NCBI RefSeq assembly: GCF_003334385.1
Contig: NZ_QOWN01000043.1
Strand: one strand, 5' to 3'
From: Escherichia coli
GTDB taxonomy: Bacteria > Pseudomonadota > Gammaproteobacteria > Enterobacterales > Enterobacteriaceae
DNA: 37,210 bases
Position 1 is the stretch's first letter. Each line of letters opens with the position of its first letter. A program made the position numbers. This document shows positions 15,001 to 18,000 of the stretch, piece by piece.

Positions 15001-18000
15001 CAGAACTGCTGCAATCTGCCACCTTTGTGCTGGCCGTGGCGGCAAACGTGCCGGTCGATCAGATCCAGCGTCAGTTTATCCAGCAGTCGAAAATTTCCTC
15101 GCCGGAAAAAATCCGCAATATGGTCAGTGTGCAGATCCCCGGTATTCCATTGCGTGCCCTTATGGTGGCTCCCCGCCAGCTTCCTTACCATTCCGGGTTC
15201 AGCTATTTCGAACTCGACAAGAGTGGCCAGGCCTGGACAGAAATGGCTGCCGCCGGGGCCGTTGCACTGCATGTTTCCGGCAGTTTCCCGGATCTGAACA
15301 TGCAACTGTGGGCGATAAGAGGGTAAGACGATGGATGAGGGGTCACTGTCTCTGCCACCATTTACCGGACACGACGAAAAAAGCCAGCGCAACTACCATC
15401 TCGCGCTTCGTGGCAACAGCCTGAATCCGATGATCGACGCGGCCACGCCGCTACTCGGTATGGTAATGCGCCTTTCAACCATGAACAGCCAGACGATGCC
15501 GGAGCATCTTTTTGCTCAGGTGGTGACAGATGTTCAGGCCGTGGAGCAACTGCTTCAGGAGCAGGGCTACGAACCGGGCGTGATTATCTCGTTTCGCTAC
15601 ATCCTCTGCACGTTTATTGATGAAGCGGCGCTCGGTAACGGCTGGTCAAACAAGAACGAGTGGATCAAGCAGTCATTGCTGGTCCATTTCCACAACGAAG
15701 CCTGGGGTGGCGAGAAAGTTTTCATCCTGCTGGAGCGCCTGATCCGTGAACCCAAACGTTACCAGGATCTGCTGGAATTTCTCTGGATCTGTTTTTCTCT
15801 GGGATTTCGCGGGCGCTACAAAGTGGCAGCACAGGATCAGGGGGAATTTGAGCAGATCTACCGCCGTCTGTACCACGTTCTGCATAAACTGCGCGGCGAT
15901 GCCCCTTTCCCGCTGTTACACCAGGACAAAAAAACCCAGGGCGGGCGTTATCAGCTCATCAGTCGCCTGACTGTTAAACATATTTTTTGTGGTGGCGTTG
16001 TCGTGCTGGCGTTGTTTTACCTGTTCTATCTGTTGCGGCTGGACAGCCAGACGCAGGACATCCTGCACCAGCTAAACAAATTACTTCGATAAGGACGTTT
16101 ATGATCCAGATTGATCTTCCCCCGCTGGTAAAACGGCTGAACCTGTTCTCCCGCCAGGCGCTGGAGATGGCCGCCTCTGAATGTATGAGTCAGCAGGCAG
16201 CGGAAATTACCGTCAGCCATGTGCTCATTCAGATGCTCGCCATGCCACGCAGTGACCTGCGGGTTATTACCCGCCAGGGCGATATTGGCATGGAAGAGTT
16301 GCGCCAGGCGCTGACGGTAGAGAACTACACAACCGCCCGTTCTGCGGACAGCTACCCGGCGTTTTCCCCGATGCTGGTTGAGTGGCTTAAAGAGGGCTGG
16401 CTGCTGGCGTCGGCTGAGATGCAGCACAGCGAACTGCGCGGCGGCGTGTTGCTGCTGGCCCTGCTGCATTCGCCGCTGCGTTATATACCGCCTGCTGCCG
16501 CCCGGCTGTTGACCGGCATTAACCGTGACCGTCTGCAACAGGACTTTGTGCAGTGGACACAGGAGTCGGCGGAATCAGTCGTGCCGGATGCAGACGGTAA
16601 AGGCGCAGGCACAATGACGGACGCCTCTGACACCCTGCTTGCCCGCTATGCCAAAAACATGACCGCAGACGCCCGTAACGGCAGGCTTGACCCGGTACTG
16701 TGCCGCGACCACGAAATCGACCTGATGATCGACATTCTCTGCCGCCGCCGTAAAAACAACCCGGTGGTGGTGGGCGAAGCGGGCGTGGGCAAAAGCGCAC
16801 TGATTGAAGGGCTGGCGCTGCGCATCGTGGCAGGCCAGGTGCCGGACAAGCTGAAAAACACCGATATCATGACCCTTGACTTGGGCGCATTGCAGGCCGG
16901 GGCGTCGGTGAAGGGTGAATTCGAAAAACGTTTCAAAGGGCTGATGGCGGAGGTCATTTCCTCCCCGGTGCCGGTCATTCTGTTTATCGACGAAGCACAT
17001 ACCCTGATTGGCGCGGGCAACCAGCAGGGCGGGCTGGATATCTCCAACCTGCTCAAACCGGCGCTGGCGCGCGGCGAGCTGAAAACCATCGCCGCCACCA
17101 CCTGGAGCGAGTACAAAAAATACTTCGAAAAAGATGCCGCCCTGTCGCGCCGCTTCCAGTTGGTGAAGGTCAGCGAACCCAACGCTGCCGAAGCCACCAT
17201 TATTCTGCGCGGTCTGTCGGCGGTCTATGAACAGTCTCACGGCGTGCTGATTGATGATGATGCCTTGCAGGCCGCTGCGACATTAAGCGAGCGTTATCTC
17301 TCCGGGCGTCAGTTACCGGACAAAGCGATTGATGTGCTGGATACCGCCTGCGCCCGTGTGGCCATCAACCTGTCGTCGCCGCCGAAGCAAATCTCGGCGC
17401 TGACCACTCTGAGCCACCAGCAGGAGGCGGAAATTCGCCAGCTTGAGCGCGAGCTTCGCATCGGACTGCGTACCGACACATCACGGATGACAGAGGTGCT
17501 GGTGCAGTATGATGAAACGCTGACGGCGCTGGATGAACTGGAAGCGGCCTGGCACCAGCAGCAGACGCTGGTCCGGGAGATTATCGCGCTGCGCCAGCAG
17601 TTACTGGGCGTGGCAGAGGACGATGCGGCGCCGTTGCCGGACGCAGATACCGTGGAGGATACGCAGCCAGAGTCAGAGTCAGAACAGGATAATACCGGTG
17701 CCGTACCGGCTGATGAGGCCGACAGAGAACAACCGGAAGAGACCGCTGAAACAGTTTCCCCGGTACAGCGGCTGGCCCAGCTCACTGCCGAACTGGACGC
17801 CCTGCATAACGACCGGTTGCTGGTCTCCCCGCACGTCGATAAAAAACAGATTGCGGCGGTGATTGCCGAATGGACCGGCGTGCCGCTCAACCGCCTGTCG
17901 CAGAATGAAATGTCGGTCATCACCGACCTGACGAAATGGCTGGGTGACACCATCAAAGGCCAGGACCTGGCGATTGCCAGCCTGCATAAGCATCTACTGA

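Follow-up and report, generated by a model that had tools for sequence, protein, structure and literature searches.

A predicted disordered acidic loop with an in-frame hexanucleotide repeat in the middle domain of Escherichia coli TssH/ClpV

The acidic segment in the middle-domain region of Escherichia coli TssH/ClpV is a real but ordinary feature. We put the probability at about 0.75 that it is a permissive, disordered acidic spacer whose length drifts, largely neutrally, through slippage of a (Glu-Ser)n-encoding repeat. The analysis was performed on a 37,210-nucleotide stretch of E. coli DNA, referred to below as the window, and all coordinates are those of the window.

The gene encoding the segment was identified using TIGR03345, the RefSeq annotation, and Pfam, and its two nucleotide-binding motifs were read from the sequence:

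16101-18866, + strand: tssH/clpV coding sequence, T6SS AAA+ ATPase, 921 aa
16773-16796, + strand: Walker A of AAA-1, GEAGVGKS, aa 225-232
18057-18080, + strand: Walker A of AAA-2, GPSGVGKT, aa 653-660

The open reading frame as found spans 15987-18866, with an upstream extension to a TTG at 15987; the annotated start is the ATG at 16101, as given in a RefSeq genome with 100% identical DNA. The TIGR03345 profile (VI_ClpV1) scored 1124.6 bits against a cut-off of 884.95 and was covered from position 4 to 851 of 852, whereas the ClpB model TIGR03346 fell below its curated cut-off (681.6 versus 1232.1 bits). Pfam assigned the domains AAA (223-334), AAA_lid_9, AAA_2 (644-805), and ClpB_D2-small. 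Residues G228, G230, and K231 of the first Walker A motif and G653, G656, G658, and K659 of the second were invariant in 120 TssH sequences. Residues 2-159 matched the V. cholerae ClpV N-domain 3zri (E = 1.6e-32), as well as 4hh5 and 4uqw, and the remainder of the protein matched ClpB, ClpC, and Hsp104. By homology, the protein therefore carries a ClpV-type N-domain with putative binding to the sheath protein TssC, and it shares with the V. cholerae ClpV/VasG-type TssH the domain order N-domain, AAA-1, coiled-coil middle domain, and AAA-2. The RefSeq genome with identical DNA contains tssB, C, E, F, G, tagH, tssJ, K, L, H, vasI, tssA, tssM, hcp, and vgrG; tssH sits between tssL and vasI in this full tssA-M cluster. 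The T6SS island adjoins tRNA-Asp, dnaQ, and rnhA, and the window is E. coli chromosome. We conclude that the gene product is a standard TssH/ClpV.

Positions 17616-17762 on the + strand translate exactly to EDDAAPLPDADTVEDTQPESESEQDNTGAVPADEADREQPEETAETVSP, which corresponds to residues 506-554 of TssH (49 residues). On the opposite strand, stop codons are present in the same frame across this interval. A 215-aa antisense ORF at 17309-17956 was set aside, because the frame that it overlaps on the other strand is coding and strongly conserved. Aspartate and glutamate account for 18 of the 49 residues, against 14.5% in the protein as a whole (binomial tail 1e-4), and the net charge is -17. When all 49-aa stretches of TssH were compared, this one scored highest for D/E, with 11 in the best non-overlapping runner-up, and it contained four hydrophobic residues, where the median stretch has 17; residues 506-554 are thus the most acidic and least hydrophobic stretch of the protein. 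The segment lies between Walker A of AAA-1 and Walker A of AAA-2, within a region empty of Pfam domains (454-643). The initial annotation had described an acidic segment located between the AAA+ modules in the middle-domain region, and both the composition and the motif positions bear this out.

An AlphaFold2 model was built on an alignment of 120 diverse TssH sequences and reached a mean pLDDT of 91.2. The middle domain was resolved into the following elements:

17385-17462, + strand: middle-domain helix 1, aa 429-454 (AlphaFold2, DSSP helix, pLDDT >90)
17481-17606, + strand: middle-domain long helix 2, aa 461-502 (AlphaFold2)
17607-17759, + strand: predicted disordered acidic loop, aa 503-553 (AlphaFold2 pLDDT)
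17760-17807, + strand: middle-domain helix 3, aa 554-569, leading back into the AAA-1 small subdomain (AlphaFold2)

Residues 503-553 were unstructured in the model, with pLDDT means of 44-60 in ten-residue blocks and values below 50 at residues 519-545; the segment originally noted (aa 506-554) falls in this part of the model. Residues 503-553 are accordingly predicted to form a solvent-exposed, intrinsically disordered loop running from helix 2 to helix 3. By sequence and fold matching, no full-length ClpV structure was found in the PDB, and the best match in both respects was the ClpB/Hsp104 middle domain (1qvr, 6oax, 4d2q). The coiled-coil helices 1 and 2 of ClpB align with the TssH helices, and TssH helix 2 aligns with ClpB helix L2 (phmmer versus 1qvr and 6oax). 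Judged from the helix order and this alignment, the loop would form the distal end of the arm equivalent to ClpB motif 2. In ClpB, an extra helix at the motif 2 position carries the DnaK-binding surface. The region of this ClpB helix 3 appears to be replaced by the disordered acidic loop in TssH, and the model contains three middle-domain helices instead of the four helices and complete motif 2 of a ClpB-type middle domain.

This placement lends some support to a second reading, in which the loop is a regulatory element. Its charge and length would tune the ATPase activity, threading, or hexamer behaviour of ClpV, for example through interference with head-to-tail contacts between middle domains of the kind by which ClpB is repressed, or the loop would dock a T6SS partner. 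Consistent with this, the loop would stand where ClpB has the portion of motif 2 responsible for DnaK binding and for control of activity. Further evidence on this reading came from the comparison of TssH proteins, and it is weighed below where that evidence is given.

The best 120 homologues from the first protein search were Escherichia only, and the family-wide sample was taken from a phmmer search against 1.84 billion representatives, with a MAFFT alignment of 122 full-length TssH. Most TssH matches in the phmmer search were split in two, with a break at approximately residue 500 and a restart at 555-580. Among the 122 representatives, alignment occupancy was approximately 0.95 at residue 500, then dropped below 0.5, and rose above 0.9 again from residue 558. 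The segment between these anchors (query 500-558) ranged from 2 to 67 aa with a median of 16, compared with 57 in the query, and showed a bias towards D, E, A, N, Q, and P, with few hydrophobic residues. Loop length at this site thus varies throughout the family, and the Escherichia version is at the long end; E. coli TssH differs from the rest of the family in this length and in the presence of a VNTR. The protein is also longer than a typical ClpV, as originally noted: it has 921 aa against a median of 880, and 86% of the 122 representatives are shorter. Its excess over the family median is 41 aa, as is that of the loop, and the loop accounts for the extra protein length.

The inter-anchor segment was net negative in 89 of the 122 representatives (73%), and retention of this acidic bias would suit a regulatory element. 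Against that reading, no sequence was conserved at the site across the family, and some members carried only 2-5 residues there. The segment is thus not one that most ClpV orthologues share. Proteus mirabilis TssH, which represents the nearest non-Escherichia cluster, is 64% identical overall, yet its 56-aa loop is unrelated in sequence, indicating that the sequence of the Escherichia loop is specific to its lineage, and TssH from a Planctomycetota MAG has a loop of similar length and, again, unrelated sequence. The proposal of a strain-specific insertion or expansion did not hold, since the loop occurs in E. albertii and, among 5,426 complete E. coli genomes, in approximately 2,700, and the site is variable throughout the family.

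These results also bear on whether the segment is foreign or artefactual, whether as an inserted piece of a mobile element, the scar of a recombination event, or an assembly error. Its low complexity and the lack of homologous sequence in most TssH would fit such an origin. However, its GC content (0.60) equals that of the gene (0.59), approximately 2,700 independent complete genomes carry it in frame, there was no sign of flanking repeats or of a mobile element, and every family member aligned has a loop at the corresponding position. The GC content, the ubiquity, and the family-wide loop site effectively refute a foreign insertion, and we give it almost no credence.

Within the species, tssH was found in 2,838 of 5,426 complete E. 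coli genomes, or about half, and E. albertii also carries tssH with the loop, which was found in all sampled Escherichia orthologues. In 120 Escherichia proteins, residues 503-553 formed the most variable 51-aa stretch (rank 1 of 871), with a mean entropy of 0.40 versus 0.06 elsewhere. For pairs of divergent E. coli alleles involving either of two alleles designated L005 and L006, dN/dS (Nei-Gojobori) was 0.44-0.73 in the loop, mostly 0.5-0.7, compared with 0.10-0.14 outside it. These values, which stay below 1, indicate relaxed constraint on the loop with no clear positive selection; the relaxed constraint argues against a regulatory element. The loop closes at its C-terminal side with QPEETAETVSP, which is near-invariant within Escherichia; this would suit a regulatory element and points to some constraint on charge or on the capping of helix 3.

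The part of the loop that varies between strains is a short tandem repeat:

17670-17681, + strand: hexanucleotide microsatellite (GAGTCA)x2, encoding Glu-Ser-Glu-Ser, the VNTR core (TRF)

TRF called this repeat as (CAGAGT)2.7 at 17668-17683. An allele survey was made on 54 evenly spaced full-length matches from 2,736 genomes, and nine sequences were read. Relative to the window allele, 13 of the 54 matches were equal in length, 24 were longer by 6-198 nt, and 17 were shorter by 6 nt; every difference, from -6 to +198, was a multiple of 6 nt. The sequences read gave the following copy numbers:

present window: 2 copies
Strain 114: 5 copies
E26: 13 copies
EC01307: 15 copies
O26:H11 11368: 17 copies
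B20105: 30 copies
WCHEC040047: 35 copies

All seven of these alleles, from 2 to 35 copies, have an intact coding sequence with perfect or near-perfect repeat units, each (GAGTCA)n encoding (Glu-Ser)n, and the window allele, with its two copies, is the shortest repeat-type allele. The two divergent alleles read, L005 and L006, are without a repeat array. In O157:H7, the lengths imply 3-6 copies, with a single genome checked by sequence. The only frameshifted allele seen (L002, strain 2014C-3050) was due to a 1-nt deletion within a unit (GGTCA) and not to gain or loss of a unit. A phase-variable on/off locus was rejected, as every intact allele is in frame and the repeat has a 6-nt unit; with a unit of this size, slippage cannot turn tssH off. 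The repeat resembles in-frame bacterial VNTRs with units divisible by 3, in which the number of dipeptides shifts, the frame is kept, and variation occurs between lineages and even within clones. It differs from them in its host protein, since those VNTRs occur in surface or low-complexity proteins and the tssH repeat lies in a cytoplasmic AAA+ motor. Because TssH is cytoplasmic and not a surface antigen, immune or phage selection is no obvious driver of this variation.

The repeat is already known as a strain-typing marker. The generic E. coli MLVA scheme is said to be that of Lobersli et al. from 2012 (J Microbiol Methods). We compared the window with the ten primer pairs of this generic scheme (PMC8143711 Table 1), and one pair matched it exactly and bracketed the repeat:

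17377-17395, + strand: MLVA primer match, printed as CVN017-R, zero mismatches
17845-17866, - strand: partner MLVA primer match, printed as CVN017-F, zero mismatches

The predicted amplicon, 17377-17866, is 490 bp. With the CVN016 offset of 478 (PMC8143711), it gives (490-478)/6 = 2 copies; the CVN017 offset of 202 from the same source is inconsistent with a 490-bp amplicon, though the primers are labelled CVN017. Primer labels and offsets are mutually inconsistent in this table. In published work, CVN016 ranges from 1 to 15 repeats, is highly diverse, and often yields null alleles, and CVN017 was mostly absent in the studies reporting CVN016. The locus is most probably CVN016, with the labels swapped in the table of PMC8143711. 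It has exact flanking primers, a 6-bp repeat, and a polymorphic copy number. In ST131, CVN016 has been described as a product of approximately 475 bp with no countable repeat, which would fit alleles without the repeat array, like L005 and L006. For tentative sequences of O157 MLVA primers (VNTR-3, 9, 17, 19, 25, 36, and 37), the only hits in the window were scattered 12-mer chance matches, and PMC3768571 and PMC2174234 give no primers or ORFs. The literature searched contained no link between the MLVA marker or VNTR and ClpV or the E. coli T6SS, and the ClpV middle-domain papers PMC11975955 and PMC7182274 make no remark on the loop.

The same observations bear on the regulatory reading in its evolutionary form, in which the Glu-Ser VNTR would act as a tuning knob for the rate of T6SS firing or recycling between lineages. 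In its favour, long in-frame alleles persist and their genes are intact. On the other hand, copy number varies inside a single clone, as the O157:H7 lengths imply, a pattern more like drift, and the literature searched held no connection between ClpV and the repeat. Taken with the missing sequence conservation and the relaxed constraint described above, these points make a regulatory loop unlikely, and the narrower proposal that loop length, from approximately 50 to approximately 120 residues, is a selected knob for ClpV activity or the speed of sheath recycling is more doubtful still. If it were true, E. coli lineages would differ in T6SS firing rate heritably and, by slippage, reversibly, and the locus would act on a cytoplasmic AAA+ motor much as phase variation does, but in frame and by degrees.

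Phosphorylation was considered as a further basis for a function of the loop. Its Ser and Thr residues, including T517-V-E-D, which is pT-x-x-D-like, and the Glu-Ser repeats, would be phosphorylated under regulation and bound by the FHA protein TagH. The tagH gene, whose product has an FHA domain, is in the same operon (window ORF 12171-13472), and the five Thr and three Ser residues of the loop stand in acidic surroundings. The cluster annotation, however, includes no PpkA/PppA-type kinase or phosphatase, and the positions of Thr vary between Escherichia alleles. To our knowledge, the known FHA targets in T6SSs are Fha itself or TssL and not ClpV, which also counts against this proposal. It is purely speculative, and we regard it as very improbable.

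We therefore favour a permissive, largely neutral spacer. The tip of the middle domain would be a permissive site that accepts 2-67 residues, which are polar, for the most part acidic, and not conserved in sequence, and in Escherichia the loop of approximately 50 aa would evolve almost free of amino-acid constraint. Within it, replication slippage is the probable cause of gains and losses of (GAGTCA) units, and since each unit spans 6 nt, such changes preserve the reading frame and alter nothing but the count of Glu-Ser dipeptides, which ranges from 2 to 35. The likeliest role of the loop would be that of a flexible, non-sticky connector and nothing more. The variation in length would then be largely neutral, which would make it usable as an MLVA strain-typing marker. 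Since negative charge is retained and the loop end is conserved, these data leave room for a modest role, either in keeping the tip soluble and non-sticky or in modulating middle-domain contacts. A specific binding surface is unlikely, because 2-35 Glu-Ser units are tolerated and constraint is relaxed. In the ClpVs that have been studied, sheath recognition maps to the N-domain. The initial suggestion that the insertion alters sheath recognition consequently found no support, as this function belongs to the N-domain and the loop tolerates such a range of units under relaxed constraint.

The finding changes T6SS biology little, as the protein is a standard TssH with a disordered loop at a family-wide variable site. 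It does place the MLVA locus CVN016/017, which can now be assigned to the inside of tssH in the T6SS island at tRNA-Asp (aspV). CVN016 null alleles would reflect strains without the island, and products without a countable repeat would reflect alleles that have no array. RefSeq gives very long alleles just the name "AAA family ATPase", so surveys of tssH based on gene names miss intact genes. The HMM hit to TssH is split in two, which may be the origin of this name. The natural alleles with 2-35 Glu-Ser units provide a ready series for examining how much length the ClpV middle domain tolerates.

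The tssH gene was found to be tightly packed between its neighbours. Its start codon sits 8 nt downstream of tssL, which ends at 16092, and its stop codon shares 4 nt with the start codon of vasI (18863-18866), suggesting translational coupling within the operon. At the position of tagH, the window contains an uninterrupted ORF of 433 aa (12171-13472), and its T6SS cluster is apparently intact. In the corresponding stretch of E. coli CP53 (13230-15771 of the CP53 locus), tagH is interrupted by an IS3-family element; the tssH of CP53 is 100% identical to that of the window. This difference in tagH indicates that the window comes from a different strain. 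One further reading frame was detected on the opposite strand:

17309-17956, minus strand: antisense ORF of 215 aa spanning the loop region

This ORF was rejected as a gene; it is most likely spurious, as the frame opposite to it is a strongly conserved coding frame.

The acidic loop of TssH was also compared with that of the closest non-Escherichia relative. The Proteus mirabilis TssH carries an imperfect internal repeat within a 56-aa loop (…NDDVANDVANNEVV…), which hints at independent low-complexity expansion of this site in other genera. In E. coli 2014C-3050, one unit of the repeat array reads GGTCA in place of GAGTCA, a 1-nt deletion that shifts the frame of tssH, and the gene is annotated as a pseudogene. 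This deletion may be genuine, or it may stem from erroneous sequencing of the repeat.

A segment of tssH just upstream of the loop was identical (32/32) to a 32-nt CRISPR spacer of E. coli MS 21-1:

17514-17545, inside tssH: spacer match (1501-1532 of the MS 21-1 locus)

The identity extends 2 nt further, into the edge of the repeat. The spacer lies in a type I-E array located between ygcE and queE, and was found in just one of 5,426 complete genomes. Because the spacer was the sole match to the tssH query on the MS 21-1 chromosome, tssH appears to be absent from that strain, in which case the spacer would not be self-targeting. The 3 nt flanking the protospacer, read from the sequence in the transcribed orientation of the array, are GCC and not the canonical AAG/ATG motif; this orientation is assumed from the I-E repeat.

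The repeat is also amplified in generic E. coli MLVA, in which CVN016 and CVN017 are separate loci. One primer of the pair printed as CVN016 appears to resemble the 5'-terminal part of a tRNA-Ser gene. The printed size offsets are 478 for CVN016 and 202 for CVN017 (PMC8143711). The amplicon of the pair printed as CVN017 (17377-17866) agrees with the offset of 478 and disagrees with that of 202 (PMC8143711, Table 1 and Methods). The two labels are probably swapped in Table 1.

Finally, the RefSeq product names of tssH alleles were examined. The name TssH was given to alleles with 15 or fewer repeat units, and intact alleles of 17-35 units were named only 'AAA family ATPase':

O26:H11 11368 (17 units)
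WCHEC040047 (35 units)
B20105 (30 units)

For the 35-copy protein, the total score against TIGR03345, the NCBIfam TssH/ClpV profile, was unchanged (1123 bits), and the hit was broken into two stretches. This split may be behind the failure of the naming rule for long alleles. Counts of tssH by product name would overlook intact genes of 17-35 units.
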